From Alphaproteobacteria bacterium (GTDB lineage: Bacteria; Pseudomonadota; Alphaproteobacteria; JAJFFI01), in contig JASJBI010000026.1 in assembly GCA_030066595.1 (NCBI GenBank), forward strand, positions 30,693 through 62,692: a DNA stretch of 32,000 bases, in the 5' to 3' direction. The translations under genes were made by a program, and so were the position numbers. This document shows positions 7,274-13,843 of the stretch, piece after piece (position 1 is the first letter of the stretch; each line of letters opens with the position of its first letter). Below the pieces are notes generated by a model. It was not told the DNA's origin, did not search any database, and was given only the letters and a program-made list of their open reading frames with translations.

Positions 7274-9550
7274 CTAGGCGCGCCGCAGATGATAGGCAGG
7301 CGTCGTGCCGAACGCCTTGGGCAAGGTGAGGTTCCCGACATATTCGAGTGCAATCCCGCCTACGTTCTCCGCCGTGGCAACCGCCGCAAAAGACTCGCTG
7401 ACATAGACATTTCCAGGCGGAGTCACGGGTTCGATCCGAGCCGCCCGGTTGACGTAAGCGCCGCAGTACGTGACGCCGCCGGTAACGGGATCCGGCTGCG
7501 CGTGCACCGGCCCACAATCTATGGACAGCCGCAGACCGAGATGACGGGCGAGCCCCACGGCTGCCCAGTCAAGCGCATCGAAGCGATCGCGCAAATCCAA
7601 CCCGAACCGACAAGCCGACCGCACATCGGCCAGCACAAAGAAAAGACCGTCCCCAGTCGTACGACGATGAAGAACCGAAGCATCGTATTTCTGTGCGACT
7701 TCAGCCACGGGCCGCAAGAAGTGAGTCATGAAGTCCGGCAGAAGATGATCCGGGAGATCGCTGTAACCGCTCGTGTCAGCGAACAGCATTGCCCGGATTC
7801 GCCGTGCGCTTGCCAGGTCGCTTTCGGGTTCGAGGCCCGACGTGGCAGATTGCGAGACGTCTGTCTTGGTTGCGTTCGAGCGGTTGCCGATCGGGTGGAC
7901 TTTGCGGCCTTCACGATGCCACAGATCTGGCAACGACGCGGCGGGACCAGGACGGATTTCACCGGCAAGCGAGATCCTTTCTACGACAGTCGAGAGCGAC
8001 CGAGCCCGCAGAGCCGCTAGGCCGTCCGCGTGGAGGTCGGCAAAGTACTGAGCCTCGACCAGGCCCTGCGGTTCGAAATCACACAGGGCCAGAACGCGTG
8101 CCGCATCTGAGACAAGTCGATCGAAGCGCTCGGCCCACTGATTGCCGAGCGCTCGGCGAATCCAGGACTCCTTGAAGACCTCTGCCGGATAGGGGAGCAC
8201 CACATTGATCTCCGCGTCCTGGCGGTTCAGTTCCTCAAGAAAAAGAAGTTCGGCGACGCTTGCCGCCGAAGCATATCCGACGGACGCGCCGAGTCCGTCC
8301 AGACACCTGGCGATCTCATCAGCCAAGGCGCTTTCCGACATGTCCGACTGAGTGATCTCGCCCTCTTGTTCTGCTCTCCACGAGCCAAAGACCACGCAGG
8401 ACGGCGCGGGTATGAGTTCCTCAACACGCAAGTCGATGTCGCCGGTGTGATCCAGGACAAGCGCGGCTTGGCGACGGCTAGCGCCAAGGTCACGGTCCCG
8501 CCGTTGACCACGCGCCGCGCGCGCCGCGAGCCCGTAGTACTTCCTGCTTCGTGCTTCATCCCGCTGGATCAGCGCTGCCTCCCCCAGTGTCGCCAGCGGC
8601 CAGTAGTGGTCCTGATGAGCATCCTCCGCGTTGAGTTGCTCTTCACAAATAACCTCCACCTCCCGAGCAAGACGCTGAGCCAGATCTGCGTCTGCGCTTA
8701 GGAGAGCTGTCATAGCGGCGTTGATGCCGTTGTAGGAGGCGTGGTCCAGCCGACCTTCCTTTCGGGCGTTCTTGTAGGCGCCGAGATAGGCGCTATGCGC
8801 CTTTCTCATCTGGCCGGTACGTTGGTCCTGATCCTGCGCGCTGAGTGCGAGCTCCTTGAACGTGCGACCGAGCAGCCCAAGGGTCTCTCCGTCCCGCAGC
8901 CCTTGTTGGTGCAGACCCGTCAGGATCGCATGCGCGGGCATCAGGGCACCGCACTGGATGAGCGCAAGGCCCATCAACTGATTGAGCCGGAGCGCAAGGT
9001 CCCGTTCGTCTTTGGCGAGCTGATCCAGTCTCGCACCTGCCGGAAAGTGGGCCAGCCCCTCGGCGGCGACGTCATATGCGAACAATGGATCGATCCGCAC
9101 GGCCCGCTCGGTCAGGTCTCGGTACAGACGGGGATGGCTGGACCAAAGATCGTGGTCACGATGCAGCCATACACTTCGCAGGTTCGCCGACGTGGCGCGG
9201 CGAGGATCACTCAGGATCTCAGTGATGTCTTGCGGTTCGGCGCCGGCAGCTGGTAGCCGGTTGCCTTGGCCAGGGTTGATCTCGAAGCCCAACGCGAGAA
9301 CCGCCTTGAGTGTCTCTGACGCGCTTTGCAGATCGTATTCCTTCTCGGAGTCCGGCAGTTCGCTGAACTCGATCAGGTTTGGGTGTGTCTTTTGGTCTTG
9401 GTTGCGATCCGTACCGTGACGCCAACCCTCGGCAAGCCGTCTGGCGGCCCAAACGTCGTGCAAATGGCGCGCCAGCTCCGCAAGCCGCCGCTCCAGGGAT
9501 TCATCGAGCTCAATCTCCGACGTGTCTATCGGTGTCGGACGATAACCCAT
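7274..9550 (-). CDS. Multidomain signalling protein: RyR domain + DUF4071/MAP3K-TRAF-binding-like TPR region + Rossmann/SLOG-like module + class III adenylate/guanylate-type nucleotidyl cyclase.
   Basis: The track ORF is 7274..9661. I place the start at ATG 9550 (MGYRPTPID), because the upstream 37 codons are an Arg/Ser/Pro-rich extension. Domain motifs are listed in the four sub-features that follow. Confidence 0.85.
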   Translation of the reverse strand: MGYRPTPIDTSEIELDESLERRLAELARHLHDVWAARRLAEGWRHGTDRNQDQKTHPNLIEFSELPDSEKEYDLQSASETLKAVLALGFEINPGQGNRLPAAGAEPQDITEILSDPRRATSANLRSVWLHRDHDLWSSHPRLYRDLTERAVRIDPLFAYDVAAEGLAHFPAGARLDQLAKDERDLALRLNQLMGLALIQCGALMPAHAILTGLHQQGLRDGETLGLLGRTFKELALSAQDQDQRTGQMRKAHSAYLGAYKNARKEGRLDHASYNGINAAMTALLSADADLAQRLAREVEVICEEQLNAEDAHQDHYWPLATLGEAALIQRDEARSRKYYGLAARAARGQRRDRDLGASRRQAALVLDHTGDIDLRVEELIPAPSCVVFGSWRAEQEGEITQSDMSESALADEIARCLDGLGASVGYASAASVAELLFLEELNRQDAEINVVLPYPAEVFKESWIRRALGNQWAERFDRLVSDAARVLALCDFEPQGLVEAQYFADLHADGLAALRARSLSTVVERISLAGEIRPGPAASLPDLWHREGRKVHPIGNRSNATKTDVSQSATSGLEPESDLASARRIRAMLFADTSGYSDLPDHLLPDFMTHFLRPVAEVAQKYDASVLHRRTTGDGLFFVLADVRSACRFGLDLRDRFDALDWAAVGLARHLGLRLSIDCGPVHAQPDPVTGGVTYCGAYVNRAARIEPVTPPGNVYVSESFAAVATAENVGGIALEYVGNLTLPKAFGTTPAYHLRRA
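7292..7804 (-). other. Class III nucleotidyl cyclase catalytic domain.
   Basis: The first metal Asp is in MLFADTSGYS (nt 7760..7789). The second metal Asp is in TTGDGLFF (7637..7660). The transition-state Asn/Arg pair is in YVNRAARIE (7430..7456), followed by PGNVYVSESF. Confidence 0.8.
7967..8410 (-). other. Rossmann-like (SLOG/LOG-like?) module.
   Basis: The segment reads CVVFGSWRAEQEG...LGASVGYASAASVAELLFLEELNRQDAEINVVLPYPAEVFKES. It resembles a recurring G-x-A-x-GAD-x-LF-x-E...VVLPF module found upstream of cyclase domains in other bacterial proteins (from memory). Here the GAD is degenerate (SVA). Confidence 0.35.
8417..9214 (-). other. DUF4071 / MAP3K TRAF-binding-like helical (TPR-like) region.
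   Basis: The motifs LGLLGRTFKELA and HASYNGINAAMTALL match the GRxYKD and YYPGINAATL signatures that I recall for this family. The surrounding sequence is helical. Confidence 0.5.
9278..9508 (-). other. RyR (ryanodine-receptor repeat, PF02026-like) domain of the cyclase protein.
   Basis: The segment reads LAELARHLHDVWAARRLAEGWRHGTDRNQDQKTHPNLIEFSELPDSEKEYDLQSASETLKAVLALGFEI. It matches the RyR pattern as I remember it: H-x-x-W, a GW-x-x-G motif, HP-x-L-V/I-x-[FY], and L-x-x-x-EK-x-x-D. Confidence 0.7.
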
Positions 9551-9739
9551 GTGCGAGATCCTTCGAGCAGGGGGAGCAGCATAGCAGATCCCCAAAGGCG
9601 AGCGGGCAGCCGGAACAGGCGAGCTGCTGCGTCGTCGACGGCGACCGGCCTGGCGTCTCACATCCGGCGAAATATATCCCGGAGTGGCAGCACTTATGGG
9701 GGCGAAACCAAGCCAATGTCCGTCCGGGTCCCGAATCTA

Positions 9740-9855: not shown

Positions 9856-9907
9856 ACTAGGATTGCAACCATGTCCCACGTCTCAACAGTGCCGACTGGA
9901 TGGATAC

Positions 9908-10201
9908 ATGGCTCCCAAAAGCAAAGACCGCCTCGATACCAATGCGGTCGAACTCAACCAGCAATTCCTGGGATACGTCGAGGTGCTCGCCGCCCATATC
10001 CACCACAATTGGCTCGAGCGACGCGTGGCTGAAGGATGGGGACCTGGCAAGCAGCGGAATGACGACCGTATGACCCATCCGTGCATCAAACCGTACTCGG
10101 CGCTGCCGGAAAGCGAAAAAGAGTACGACCGGGAATCGGCGAGAGAAACGTTGAAAGCCTTGCTGGCCTTGGGATGCCGGATCACCGGCCCGGCCGGCTA
10201 G
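9908..10201 (+). CDS. Stand-alone RyR-domain protein (97 aa).
   Basis: The track ORF 9863..10201 starts at a TTG. I prefer ATG 9908 (MAPKSKDRLD...). The protein reads VEVLAAHIHHNWLERRVAEGWGPGKQRNDDRMTHPCIKPYSALPESEKEYDRESARETLKALLALGCRI, which aligns colinearly with the RyR domain of the neighbouring cyclase protein. Confidence 0.75.
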   Translation: MAPKSKDRLDTNAVELNQQFLGYVEVLAAHIHHNWLERRVAEGWGPGKQRNDDRMTHPCIKPYSALPESEKEYDRESARETLKALLALGCRITGPAG

Positions 10202-10289: not shown

Positions 10290-12209
10290 CTATTCGAATA
10301 TCGCGAGGCAGGCGTCAAACAGATGCTCGTCGTGACGATCCAGGGATGGCCGCCGCGAAGCCTGGCCCTTGATACCTTCGAGGACCGACTGAATGAGCTC
10401 CTGGTCGTGGCTGGGCTCCTGAAATGCGTCTTGCATCATCAGCAGAGCGGTCACGCTGTCACGAAGCAGGCTCGGAAAGTGCCGCTCTTGAACGAGACTC
10501 TGGAATTCGGCAAGGGCCCTGTCTGCCAGCTTCTTCCGTTCACGTTCTCCCTGGCAAATGGCCAGTCCCACCAGCGCGGTCGCCTGCGCGTAGCGCAGCT
10601 CAATGGTCCGATGCCGGTCGTTTGAACCGGCCTCCTTCAACCCTTTTCGACAGTAATCCGCCGCCGCTTTGAAGGCTTTCTTCGCGTTCGTAAGGCCGTA
10701 CGCAGCCGCGCCATAGGCCTCGCTCTCCCTGAGCAACACGATTCCCATCAGCAGTTCCGGTGGCCAGGCAACAGCAAGCGCGTCCTTTCTTGTTGCATCG
10801 AGCAATGCCTTGGGAGGTTTTGGAAACTCGGCTGCAGGAGCGTCCTGTTCGAGCACGAGTCGTGTGCACTCGAGCCAGTGATAATAGTCTTCCCAGAGAC
10901 CGTCACCGCTGCGCTCGTCCTTGATATAGCCTTTCGGCGCAGTCTCATGGGCGCTGCGATGGTACGTCTCAGCGAGCTCAAGCGAGTTCTTTCGCTCGAC
11001 TCGCTTGTCGAGGCAGGAATAGACACGCGACAGCTCTCGATGCACGTTCCCCAGGCGCCTGAGAGAAGTTGCCCGTCTCTTGTGATCGTTACCGCGTTCA
11101 GCCAGTGAAGCTGCTCTGTCATAGAAGTTGATCGCAGACTGGAAATGCATTGCGGCGGCGGCGCAATCGTCCGCGAGGAATGAATCCCATCCGAGATCGC
11201 GACTGGCATTGCCGAGGCGCGCCAGAGTGATCTGCTCGCCCCTTCGATTGCCTATTTCCCGCTGGCTTTCCAAAGCCAACCTGTAGATACGGTCGGCCTT
11301 CTGGGCAAAACCACGGTCGCGCAAAAAGCTTGCGATGTTTCCGGGCAGCAACCCTCTGCCCCAGCGCCCATGCCTGAACTCGCTGAAGATCTCTAAGGCT
11401 CTTGAGAAGTTCTTCCGCGCGTCGTCCCACTGACCCAGCTTGCCGGACGCCCGCGCCAGGTCTGCATAGGCCAAGCCCCAATTCGGCCGAATGCTGATCT
11501 GCTCTCGCGGATCCCCATCCTCTTGCTGTTTGTTCCACTCTTCGAATTTCTCTACACCGGAGCAAAAATCATCGAAAGCACCCTTGGTGTCATAGTAGTA
11601 ATCGAGCTTCAGCCATCCGATTTCGTTTTGCCAGAGAGCTTCCTGCCAGTTGGCTCTCTTGCGCTCGTTCCTGACACCTTTAGCGATCTTGAGCGCTTCC
11701 TCCAGGTCCTGTCTTCCGCTGGCAATATCGCCTTGATAAGCCCTGCTCCATCCCAGGTAGCCGCACCACGTGCTCTCCTGTTCTCTCCAGCTTATCAAGT
11801 CGGGGTCCTCTTGCCCGTTTGCCTTGGACCTCTTGCGTGCGATCTTGAGGTACTCTGACGCCTTCTTAGGCCGCCCAACAAACAGGTAGGCGAGGCCAAG
11901 CCCGCCCTGATTGGCAACCTCGGCGGATGACGAGACTGGTTGCGAGCACGTCTCGTCCGCGAGTCTCTCCACAAGCTGGGTTCGCATTTCGATCAGTGCC
12001 TGGAGATAGCCCCAGGAAAGCAGATGGCTTGCGATGTCTTCGAGCGCCTGGCAAGCGCTTCGGCAATCGCCAGCGGACATCCGATGTTGGAACTCACTAA
12101 GCTGAGGCTCGACATCGTCGATGCTGTTCCACGTCTCGGGACTGGTGCGCAGTCTCAAGAAGTATTCCGCGGCAAGGCTCTCCAAGGTCGGCTGATTGTA
12201 GTTAGGCAT
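10290..12209 (-). CDS. All-helical TPR-like repeat protein (639 aa), probably the sensor arm of the upstream STAND NTPase.
   Basis: This is the only long ORF across the span. It contains repeated TPR-like A/G/Y/W-spaced helices, for example GLAYLFVGRPKKASEYLKIA, GLAYADLARASGKLGQWDDARKNFSRALEIF and LARLGNASRDLGWDS...AAAMHFQSAINFY. I see no enzymatic motif. The start is 17 nt after the stop of the NB-ARC gene on the same strand. Confidence 0.75.
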   Translation of the reverse strand: MPNYNQPTLESLAAEYFLRLRTSPETWNSIDDVEPQLSEFQHRMSAGDCRSACQALEDIASHLLSWGYLQALIEMRTQLVERLADETCSQPVSSSAEVANQGGLGLAYLFVGRPKKASEYLKIARKRSKANGQEDPDLISWREQESTWCGYLGWSRAYQGDIASGRQDLEEALKIAKGVRNERKRANWQEALWQNEIGWLKLDYYYDTKGAFDDFCSGVEKFEEWNKQQEDGDPREQISIRPNWGLAYADLARASGKLGQWDDARKNFSRALEIFSEFRHGRWGRGLLPGNIASFLRDRGFAQKADRIYRLALESQREIGNRRGEQITLARLGNASRDLGWDSFLADDCAAAAMHFQSAINFYDRAASLAERGNDHKRRATSLRRLGNVHRELSRVYSCLDKRVERKNSLELAETYHRSAHETAPKGYIKDERSGDGLWEDYYHWLECTRLVLEQDAPAAEFPKPPKALLDATRKDALAVAWPPELLMGIVLLRESEAYGAAAYGLTNAKKAFKAAADYCRKGLKEAGSNDRHRTIELRYAQATALVGLAICQGERERKKLADRALAEFQSLVQERHFPSLLRDSVTALLMMQDAFQEPSHDQELIQSVLEGIKGQASRRPSLDRHDEHLFDACLAIFE

Positions 12210-12226
12210 CGGTCGTTCCCATCGTC

Positions 12227-13843
12227 CTACGCTCTCTGGGGGATTTGGCCATAGGCATACTCCCGGTCGAGCGCGTGCAGGCTGTATTGGCGCGTGGCCG
12301 CGTTCATTTGCACGAAATGGCCGTTGACCAGCCGCCGCAGAGACGCGCGAACGTCCAGAGCGGGCAAGAAGGGCTGGGTCAGATAGGCGATCGCCGTTTC
12401 GTCAACCTGATCGTTAAAGACGGCGAGCGCCTCCATGACGCGTTTCTCGGGTTCTTCGAGGCGTCGGTACCCGGCGGCGACCAGAGGTTCCATAACCCCG
12501 GCGCTGAATACGGCTCTGTCCGCCAAGACTTCAGACAGATCGGTCGTCGGATCCTCGTACAACAGACCCGCGAGGATCTCGAGCGCCCGGGGTATGCCCT
12601 GCGTCAGTTTGGCCGCACGTCGCAGGTCGGCCTCCTTGGCGCTGCGCAGGCCAAGCAATCCCTGCGGATCCAGGTCACGCAACAGCTCGACCGCCTCGTC
12701 CTCGCCGAGCCCCTCGCTCAACGAGATCGTCCGCGTGGTTCGCAAGGCGGCGGCGGGCAGCCTCAGCTTCTCCTGCGACGTCACGATCAGCTTCGCGCCG
12801 CTCGGCTTGGTCACGCACTGCTCGACAAAGGCCCGAAGGCCTTTGTCCCGGATCGTGCCGTCCGCCTCCAGCTCGTCCTCGAAATTGTCCATGAGAAAGA
12901 CGTATGTGCCATCCGCCATGACCTCGATCAGGTATTCGGCCTTGGCGGCCAATGACATGGTCGTGTTGACCCAGCGGGCGGCGAGGCTGTCGGCGACCGG
13001 TCTTTCCAGGATCTTGGCGAGGTCCGAATAAAGCCGCTCCAGGGTTATCCGCGTGTTCTGGGCGCTCAGATAGACAATGCCGTTGATCGGGAGGCTGGCG
13101 CCGTTGCCGCGGACTGACATCTCGCCCTGTTCCAGTTCGGCCAGGAGGCGCGTGGCCAGGGCCGTCTTGCCCATACCCCCTCGGCCCAGAACGCTCACCA
13201 TGTGCACGCCGCCATCCAACAGATAGTCTCGGAGTTCCTCTTGTTCCCTTTCGCGGCCCTTGAACGTGTCCACAACATCCAGCGGCCGGACATTCACAAC
13301 GCCATGGCTGTGATGTTGGCGCCCACCCTGGGTCCCGAAGCGGATCTTGCTTTCCTTGAAGGCATCCAAGGAGCAGTCCAACTGCTCCTGCGTCCACTGC
13401 GCGATCGACGCGACCACCTGTTCCGCGAAATCCTTTTCATCCTTGAAGAAATGAACGACATGCGAATTGCAGAGCTCATGGCGCCACGCCGCAATCTTCT
13501 CGTGCTCCGAACCACGATCCACACATTCGGGATCCCAACGCACTTTCTGATCAAGCATGAAGATGAACCGCGCGAGTCCGGATCGGCATGCCTGCTGGTA
13601 TTCAAGCTCGGTGATGGAGCGTTCTTGGTCGGTCGGAATGTGTCCGTAATGCCAGGCAACGATCCCGATATAGACTTGGCAGGCGGCGACGTCGGCGAGA
13701 CATACGTCGAGCGGCCGCCCATCCTTGGCGGGGTAGTCTTCCATCGCTACGACGTCGTGTCGCATGCTCCTGAGAAAGTCATAGGCGGCCTGGCGATACT
13801 CTTGGAGATCGCTATACGTGGACGAAATGTAGATCTTCGCCAT
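12227..13843 (-). CDS. DUF4062 (TIR-like) + NB-ARC STAND P-loop NTPase (538 aa).
   Basis: The N-terminus is MAKIYISSTYSDLQEYRQAAYDFL...MEDYPA...CQVYIGIVAWHYGH...SITELEYQQA...FIFML, the DUF4062 pattern. Walker A is GRGGMGKT (nt 13163..13186) and Walker B is VFLMDNFED. Also present are LIVTSQ, the GxP motif TQGIPRALEILAG, and the MHD-like YSLHALDREYA 12 residues before the stop. Confidence 0.85.
   Translation of the reverse strand: MAKIYISSTYSDLQEYRQAAYDFLRSMRHDVVAMEDYPAKDGRPLDVCLADVAACQVYIGIVAWHYGHIPTDQERSITELEYQQACRSGLARFIFMLDQKVRWDPECVDRGSEHEKIAAWRHELCNSHVVHFFKDEKDFAEQVVASIAQWTQEQLDCSLDAFKESKIRFGTQGGRQHHSHGVVNVRPLDVVDTFKGREREQEELRDYLLDGGVHMVSVLGRGGMGKTALATRLLAELEQGEMSVRGNGASLPINGIVYLSAQNTRITLERLYSDLAKILERPVADSLAARWVNTTMSLAAKAEYLIEVMADGTYVFLMDNFEDELEADGTIRDKGLRAFVEQCVTKPSGAKLIVTSQEKLRLPAAALRTTRTISLSEGLGEDEAVELLRDLDPQGLLGLRSAKEADLRRAAKLTQGIPRALEILAGLLYEDPTTDLSEVLADRAVFSAGVMEPLVAAGYRRLEEPEKRVMEALAVFNDQVDETAIAYLTQPFLPALDVRASLRRLVNGHFVQMNAATRQYSLHALDREYAYGQIPQRA
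13394..13837 (-). other. DUF4062 / TIR-like putative effector domain of the STAND protein.
   Basis: This covers residues about 3-150 of the 538-aa protein; motifs are given in the parent feature. The assignment of DUF4062 to a TIR-like or nucleoside-deoxyribosyltransferase-like fold is from memory of the comparative-genomics literature. Confidence 0.55.

Follow-up and report, generated by a model that had tools for sequence, protein, structure and literature searches.

The stretch analysed here, 32,000 nucleotides from an Alphaproteobacteria bacterium (contig JASJBI010000026.1, positions 30,693 to 62,692; hereafter the window), carries two adjacent reverse-strand genes whose products hold the modules of an NLR-like receptor of the STAND class (multidomain signal-transduction ATPases). 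Gene A (12227..13843, minus strand; 538 residues) encodes an N-terminal DUF4062 effector, also called NIR, a TIR-like NADase domain, followed by an NB-ARC-type nucleotide-binding oligomerization domain (NOD) made up of a nucleotide-binding domain (NBD), a helical domain (HD1) and a winged-helix domain (WHD), without a repeat arm. Gene B (10290..12209, minus strand; 639 residues) encodes a solenoid of tetratricopeptide repeats (TPR). The TAG stop of A (12227..12229, read 12229..12227) and the ATG of B (12207..12209, with B starting at 12209) enclose an intergenic spacer of 17 nt, gacgatgggaacgaccg (12210..12226, minus strand), in which a Shine-Dalgarno-like GGGA (12220..12217) ends 7 nt before the ATG. 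The C-terminus of A reads ...RQYSLHALDREYAYGQIPQRA and is followed directly by TAG, and the N-terminus of B is MPNYNQPTLESLAAEYFLRL. Since the first bases of stop and start are 20 nt apart, B lies in the -1 frame relative to A, and its open frame contains no start codon earlier than ATG 12209. A previous sequence-only reading had described a DUF4062-NB-ARC open reading frame (ORF) ending at this TAG and a 639-residue TPR ORF beginning 17 nt downstream, on the same strand and in a different frame, all of which we reproduced, coordinates included. It had also placed the stop 12 residues after YSLHALDREYA; that count holds from the aspartate of LHALD (D526), but from the end of the quoted string to the stop there are only 8 residues.

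A terminator scan found no terminator-like site in the gap between A and B, and the promoter and terminator scans as a whole gave counts no higher than shuffled sequence would (promoter-like sites: 1 found, 1.1 expected; terminator-like sites: 3 found, 4.3 expected). With a 17-nt gap, a Shine-Dalgarno-like motif and no intervening terminator, it is plausible that translation of B is coupled to that of A.

Gene A combines an effector with a molecular switch. Residues 3-85 (13589..13837, minus strand) match Pfam DUF4062 (PF13271) with E=3e-26 and 91.9 bits against a cut-off of 24.7, the profile being covered over its full length (1-82); further Pfam matches in A are to AAA_16, NB-ARC and NACHT. 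DUF4062 has recently been shown to be a TIR-like NADase, termed Swarozyc in one study and renamed NIR in another. The active-site glutamate of KpSwz is E97 (bioRxiv 10.64898/2026.05.01.722283). In an alignment with the sequence of the PDB entry, SITE(79) of A stands opposite SFTE of KpSwz, so that the active-site glutamate of the family (KpSwz E97, PsAvs2 E108) is present in A as E79 (13607..13609, minus strand), a correspondence that is approximate since the numbering of the construct was inferred. E79 is invariant in 16 homologues. From the domain assignment and this residue, A is a putative NAD+-hydrolysing enzyme. In the same 16 homologues (alignment A1), G220, G222, G223, G225, K226 and T227 of the Walker A P-loop GRGGMGKT (residues 220-227; 13163..13186, minus strand) are likewise invariant.

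An AlphaFold2 (AF2) model of A, with a predicted local distance difference test score (pLDDT) of 82.6, comprises a TIR-like α/β domain, a long helix, a disordered linker and then the NBD-HD1-WHD unit, with an α/β NBD at residues 198-375, helices at 381-460 and a WHD with a β-hairpin at 464-532. The MHD-like motif LHALD (residues 522-526; 12266..12280, minus strand) closes the winged-helix β-hairpin: strands 511-514 and 519-522 are followed by a helix at 524-532. At least 90 % of aligned sequences retain L522, H523 and L525, and H523 lies just after the hairpin in the model; it is a candidate equivalent of the MHD histidine of plant NLRs and Apaf-1, which contacts the bound nucleotide. The final WHD helix ends at residue 532, 6 residues short of the stop. 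The best Foldseek matches of the model in the PDB are RPP1, the NRC3/4 resistosomes, Roq1, CED-4 and Apaf-1 (E=1e-15 to 1e-9). Since the model stops right after the WHD and matches NB-ARC structures, A is an entire effector and NOD without any further module. The repeat sensor (TPR, WD40 or leucine-rich repeat, LRR) that is typical of STAND polypeptides is not on A; a TPR arm is instead encoded by B.

Pfam recognizes TPR_12 (E=4e-14), TPR_2 and TPR_1 in B. Its AF2 model is an all-α solenoid of 27 helices (pLDDT 83.5, predicted template modelling score 0.84) that is confident except for the first ~30 residues, which are of low confidence when B is modelled alone. Residues 111-639 (10290..11879, minus strand) form the TPR-like solenoid, presumed to be the ligand-sensing arm. 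Foldseek searches against the PDB matched only TPR superhelices of a generic kind, LGN and OGT among them; no solved Avs sensor was matched, and the matches gave no pointer to a ligand. Residues 1-110 (11880..12209, minus strand) correspond by homology to the stretch directly behind the WHD in fused relatives, and we propose that they form a docking segment. Full-length relatives of B are few: one was found by a word-indexed search (P0122, 40 % identical; P-numbers denote relatives' proteins and L-numbers their genome loci) and three by an exhaustive search of 1.84 billion representative proteins. These B-family proteins are 639-662 residues long and align end to end. B diverges faster than A, with ~40 % against ~60 % identity to relatives.

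The homology of the B N-terminus locates the split precisely. Searches with A recovered many relatives of ~530-550 residues that end where A ends, together with others of ~920-940 residues that run on into TPR repeats; some fused homologues, such as P0010, P0012 and P0005, are 55-57 % identical to A. These three read ...YSLHPLDxxYAYxQxP...(Y)NRRNLELRAADFYxxxRxPExEWKTxDDLxPQLxEFEHR..., and the N-terminus of B is homologous to the portion after their YAY motif. When the last 120 residues of A and the first 110 of B were searched by tblastn against 80 genome loci, the two segments adjoined in one frame in ~45 of them, with a minority having a stop between the segments and the arm in another frame. 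The earlier suggestion that B begins with a linker is thus borne out, B 1-110 aligning with the same-frame segment after YSLHxLDxxYAY in the fused loci. Among clusters that contain a segment resembling the B N-terminus, it lies 0-10 residues after the initiator methionine of a stand-alone protein of ~440-650 residues in 24 and ~323 residues after a P-loop in 50, the other 29 being mostly fragments; stand-alone arms therefore make up 24 of the 74 complete arm-bearing clusters.

The junction itself is conserved. P0003 (541 residues, 60 % identical to A) is followed by a gene for a 653-residue TPR protein that starts 17 nt after its stop, and P0004 (540 residues, 59 %) shares a contig with P0122, the NTPase gene ending at 2243 and the arm gene starting at 2261. 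The junctions of the window, L001 and L003 align without gaps through the WHD tail, TAG, a 17-nt spacer and ATG CCT RAY TAC (M-P-N/D-Y), with a purine-rich Shine-Dalgarno-like motif at equal spacing in each (GGGA in the window; GGGGGAG and AGGAGA in L001 and L003). Identity to the window across L001 and L003 is 59-60 % for A and 40-41 % for B. As the junction has been kept while the proteins diverged to this extent, the split is an old, maintained arrangement, and a divergence of roughly 40-60 % means that the three loci are not copies of one recently broken allele. Two other assemblies of the same organism, a metagenome assembly in ENA and one from Logan, contain the same 538- and 639-residue genes, 17 nt apart, and over 151 nt the ENA junction does not differ from the window. 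On this comparative evidence the split is a real design rather than an accident of sequencing or mutation.

To place the window within its family, we compared 105 related NTPase modules with a complete C-terminus, defining as short forms those with a stop no more than 20 residues past the motif. Short forms account for 36 of the 105, and an arm of more than 100 residues is present in 60. The expectation that effector, NTPase and TPR sensor normally share one chain, voiced in the sequence-only reading, thus holds for only about two-thirds of the family. In a neighbour-joining tree built on ~350 columns, the outgroup clades are fused throughout, and besides singleton short forms there are three clades made up only of short forms, each with 100 % bootstrap support: W, which holds the window, P0002-4, P0017 and cyclase-NTPase forms; D, with other DUF4062 forms; and E, with EAD7/bDLD1-NTPase forms (EAD, effector-associated domain). 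Because these clades are well supported separately while their joint monophyly, like that of all short forms, has 0 % support and the outgroups are fused, the tree points to recurrent fission at this linker, at least two or three independent times, in chassis with different effectors. The N-terminal effectors on split chassis include DUF4062, nucleotide cyclase, EAD7/bDLD1 and trypsin.

We inspected the surroundings of short forms in the window, L001, L003, L015-19, L084, L087, L088, L091, L092 and L093 (L086 is a second assembly of L084). A same-strand downstream arm gene that opens with the linker segment was present in 11 of 11 distinct loci, with NTPase-to-arm gaps from -4 nt (a GTGA overlap) to ~100 nt, and the NTPase-then-arm order spans at least four effector types and several phyla.

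Several members of the family depart from this simple layout. The short form P0006 (551 residues) lies close to the fused P0005 (827 residues), at an NTPase-module distance of 0.16, and some short forms in the family may have arisen by recent breakage or as artefacts of assembly, in contrast to the clade of the window. At L087 (8675..12272), a 549-residue DUF4062-NTPase (P0021) is followed by a 151-residue linker-only ORF, a 430-residue TPR ORF and a 593-residue linker-led arm; the first arm may have been broken or split a second time, with a second complete arm after it. In L092 (1057..3444), a gene for an EAD7-bearing protein kinase lies directly 5′ of a split DUF4062-NTPase (604 residues) and its arm (437 residues), and the kinase may be an EAD-recruited second effector. 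An Anaerolineae contig (L004, 5854..12251) holds two fused paralogues in tandem, with open frames of 1164 and 962 codons from stop to stop.

Two further Anaerolineae loci bear on how detached arms may be used. In L015 (4061..12280) and L017 (2956..12394), one EAD7/bDLD1-NTPase gene has paralogous TPR arm genes, each standing alone, on its flanks, four in L015 and five in L017, all on the same strand; the window has one arm only. Within each array, the arms are 65-71 % identical over their first 45 residues (YTRRxLELRAAEYYASIRKPExEWKxIEDL...) and 36-42 % over the remainder. Because the first 45 residues are far better conserved than the arm body, the pattern suggests a shared docking module, held constant by one shared NTPase while the TPR body diversifies. 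We take the arrays to be the best available evidence that the arm would act in trans. A tentative extension, which we put forward as possible rather than probable, is that one NOD-effector chassis takes interchangeable TPR arms in trans through a conserved docking segment of ~45-110 residues. The window, where a single chassis goes with a single arm, would then be minimal, and the Anaerolineae loci, with one NTPase and four or five diversified arm genes, an expanded form. If true, modular arms would amount to a combinatorial innate-immune receptor repertoire in bacteria.

Taken together, we consider it likely that A and B are a genuine, maintained two-gene NLR-like receptor, with A providing effector and switch and B the sensor arm. 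The split exists, is conserved, sits at the linker between WHD and arm and arose more than once, and the catalytic glutamate and P-loop of A are intact. A and B most likely form a non-covalent two-subunit NLR-like sensor. In such a receptor, A and B would be co-transcribed, and translation of B would start separately, at the ATG 17 nt past the stop of A, with the help of the Shine-Dalgarno-like motif before it. The N-terminal segment of B would dock non-covalently on the WHD and NBD of A, restoring a receptor that is ADP-bound and autoinhibited. Once the TPR arm had bound a ligand, probably a phage protein, this inhibition would be released, and the freed A would exchange nucleotide and oligomerise, bringing its NADase domains together; depletion of NAD+ would then lead to abortive infection. 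Splitting would turn the arm into an exchangeable module, such that in some relatives several paralogous arms could serve one NTPase.

Several observations weigh against this reading. Across the B family, identity is 43 % over the N-terminal 110 residues as compared with 40-41 % for the remainder, which is no clear excess. The number of fissions (at least 2-3) is approximate because it comes from a neighbour-joining tree on ~350 columns. Physical binding of A by B and an anti-phage role of the pair are both predictions. The neighbouring genes encode histidine kinases, a MarR regulator, oxidoreductases and a LysE exporter, and form no obvious defence island. In PADLOC, A matches no Avs model (Avs1-5) and only PDC-S27 weakly (E=0.004); B and fused or split relatives match generic TPR models or nothing, the cyclase form P0031 also matching PycC cyclase models; searches of PADLOC and NCBIfam for a named defence family gave nothing specific. 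Finally, a 1-nt deletion in the tail of A would open a fused frame in the window.

This last point bears on the two explanations in which the functional protein is, or recently was, a single chain. The sequence-only reading had left a genuine two-subunit receptor and a recent frameshift as alternatives. In favour of an accidental break in a single-chain NIR-STAND-TPR gene, be it a recent frameshift, a pseudogene or a mistake in sequencing or assembly, 65 codons of open frame precede the ATG of B, so that a 1-nt deletion near 12230-12245 would join A and B; about 60 % of family members are fused; and P0006 hints that recent breaks may occur in the family. Because a single nucleotide would suffice, the window alone is unable to exclude a frameshift, but the comparative data do. 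Stop, spacer, Shine-Dalgarno-like motif and ATG recur in L001 and L003 despite the divergence of both proteins, the close homologues are not uniformly single-chain but split at the same place, the well-supported clade of the window consists of short forms throughout, both ORFs are intact and full length with a B family alignable over its whole length, and other assemblies of the organism give both genes alike. In L001, moreover, a TGA in the frame of B stands immediately 5′ of its ATG, and so no simple indel or -1 frameshift could fuse that pair. We therefore rejected an accidental break, which is now scarcely credible, and of the two alternatives it is the two-subunit receptor that the junction and the clade support. 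That a fused A-B chain is made by programmed -1 frameshifting or stop readthrough is also very improbable, although B does occupy the -1 frame of A, with the frame open across the junction in the window and L003, and although in L091 the arm is in frame with its NTPase. The tail of A (ggc caa atc ccc cag aga gcg tag) contains no slippery heptamer of the form X XXY YYZ, a ribosome frameshifted in L001 would meet the TGA and be barred from B, and the junctions of other split clades differ widely, from the GTGA overlap to gaps of 23-100 nt. The conserved ATG and Shine-Dalgarno-like motif at fixed spacing point instead to independent initiation, and this explanation too was rejected. In L091 (1389..5471), a trypsin-NTPase (744 residues) follows a Trypco1 gene, and a 487-residue arm continues beyond the stop and a single acg codon in the same frame. 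This split may be the product of a nonsense mutation, or a candidate for readthrough.

Two other explanations accept two proteins and differ on what B does. A might be a sensor-less NOD-effector that is adjacent to, yet independent of, a TPR scaffold serving, for example, the neighbouring RyR, TPR-S or cyclase proteins. Arm-less short NOD proteins do exist and can defend alone (bNACHT01; compare bNACHT clade 14 and the plant TIR-NBS, or TN, proteins), cyclase genes recur beside the pair in three loci, and the interaction of A with B is itself a prediction. B nevertheless opens precisely with the stretch to which the WHD is covalently linked in fused homologues, the order of NTPase and arm on one strand recurs across effector types and phyla, paralogous arms around one NTPase retain their first 45 residues far more than the rest, and the cyclase genes next to the pair differ among loci in their orientation, their architecture and how closely they are related (23-46 % identity); we judge independence to be improbable. 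Less easily set aside, though still unlikely, is that B acts as a dissociable inhibitor or guard, which an invader titrates, degrades or modifies and thereby frees A to oligomerise. Single-chain STAND arms autoinhibit the NOD (Apaf-1, Avs7), a non-covalent arm could in principle simply leave, and disorder is predicted for residues 1-30 of B in isolation. Diversified arm arrays fit a repertoire of specific binders better than a set of redundant inhibitors; the present data do not separate this logic from ligand-induced activation.

The modules of the proposed two-gene receptor are familiar from single chains. In a single-chain Avs2 that carries a TPR arm, DUF4062 was shown to be the N-terminal NADase effector (bioRxiv 10.64898/2026.09.04.749371), and the NIR (DUF4062)-Avs2 and other single-chain DUF4062-STAND-TPR proteins (also bioRxiv 10.64898/2026.05.01.722283) share with the A/B locus the same modules in the same order, with the catalytic glutamate kept in A. 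In NIR-Avs2 the TPR arm is on the one chain, whereas in the window it is separate, 17 nt downstream, of a rare type and without a PADLOC Avs match; phage defence is a putative role of A/B. What is new relative to the single-chain proteins is the detachment of the sensor as a gene of its own, the modules themselves being already known. Plant TIR-NB-ARC-LRR proteins (RPP1, Roq1) provide the best structural matches to the model of A, with its TIR-like and NB-ARC parts. Plants also have TN proteins that lack a repeat arm. Here, in contrast to both plant forms, the arm is TPR rather than LRR, the effector is DUF4062 and not a canonical TIR, and the arm missing from A is encoded by the next gene, beginning exactly at the linker. 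The likeness to plant receptors is one of fold and logic and does not indicate close ancestry.

Division of STAND functions between proteins has precedents of other kinds. STAND modules typically occur on one polypeptide, but in EAD-linked, effector-in-trans systems the functions are distributed over adjacent genes and assembled non-covalently (Kaur et al., eLife 2021, PMC8195603). The proposed A/B receptor resembles these systems in placing STAND functions on several adjacent genes, and a sister split clade bears EAD7 and bDLD1 N-terminally. The EAD systems, however, detach the effector and dock it by paired adaptor domains, whereas A/B detaches the sensor arm and the proposed dock is the native linker between WHD and arm. 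In sensor/helper pairs (NAIP-NLRC4; plant sensor NLRs with NRC helpers), recognition and execution likewise reside on two proteins, and one executor may serve several sensors, as in the arrays of L015 and L017. Both partners there are full NLRs with their own NOD, while the sensor here lacks any NOD; the interchangeable-arm idea is accordingly like sensor/helper networks in logic but differs in this respect. A conserved split between NOD and arm, with the sensor in trans, is not described in the searchable literature that we covered; subscription-only papers (for example Leipe et al. 2004) lay outside the search, and priority is not excluded. 'Split proteins' receive a passing mention in the methods section on Avs7/Dsr1, bacterial NACHT genes are rarely found in operons according to the bNACHT literature, and a 2026 survey in Nature left out STAND clades without sensors of at least 400 residues.

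Whether from bacteria, plants or animals, NLR and STAND receptors are understood to be single-chain proteins, in which a covalently attached arm both autoinhibits the switch and senses the ligand. A natural, conserved and recurrent split suggests that this family can do without a covalent link, and offers a testable natural experiment on trans-acting NLR sensors. It provides an experimental handle on arm inhibition and activation in trans, on the residues of the docking interface, and on arm swaps that would re-target the NADase effector. The arm arrays suggest that receptors may diversify by duplication of the sensor gene alone. Such systems will escape surveys in which one protein must itself carry a long C-terminal sensor, the 2026 survey in Nature being an example.

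Downstream of B, the window contains two genes that provide context. A 795-residue RyR - TPR-S - class III nucleotide cyclase protein (Pfam assignments) is encoded at 7274..9661 on the minus strand and is a possible associate of the pair. Between it and B, on the opposite strand, lies a small stand-alone RyR gene (9863..10201, plus strand; Pfam RyR, E=2e-26), whose product shares 51 % identity with the RyR domain of its 795-residue neighbour. A nucleotide-cyclase gene adjoins the A/B pair in all three of the closest loci (the window, L001 and L003), as a cyclase fragment in L001 (4360..4950, minus strand) and a cyclase-TPR protein in L003 (3893..5674, plus strand). In the sister clade, the NTPase carries a cyclase domain in place of DUF4062; the neighbouring cyclase of L003 is 44-46 % identical to that fused domain. 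There may be a functional link between cyclases and this NOD family; as orientation, architecture and similarity vary, we did not adopt the cyclase neighbours as an obligatory third component. A Kiloniellales cyclase-NTPase and arm pair (L084/L085, 1761..13355), from the same metagenome sample as the organism of the window, lies between Phage_capsid_2, Phage_Bbp19 and head-tail connector genes, and may be prophage cargo.

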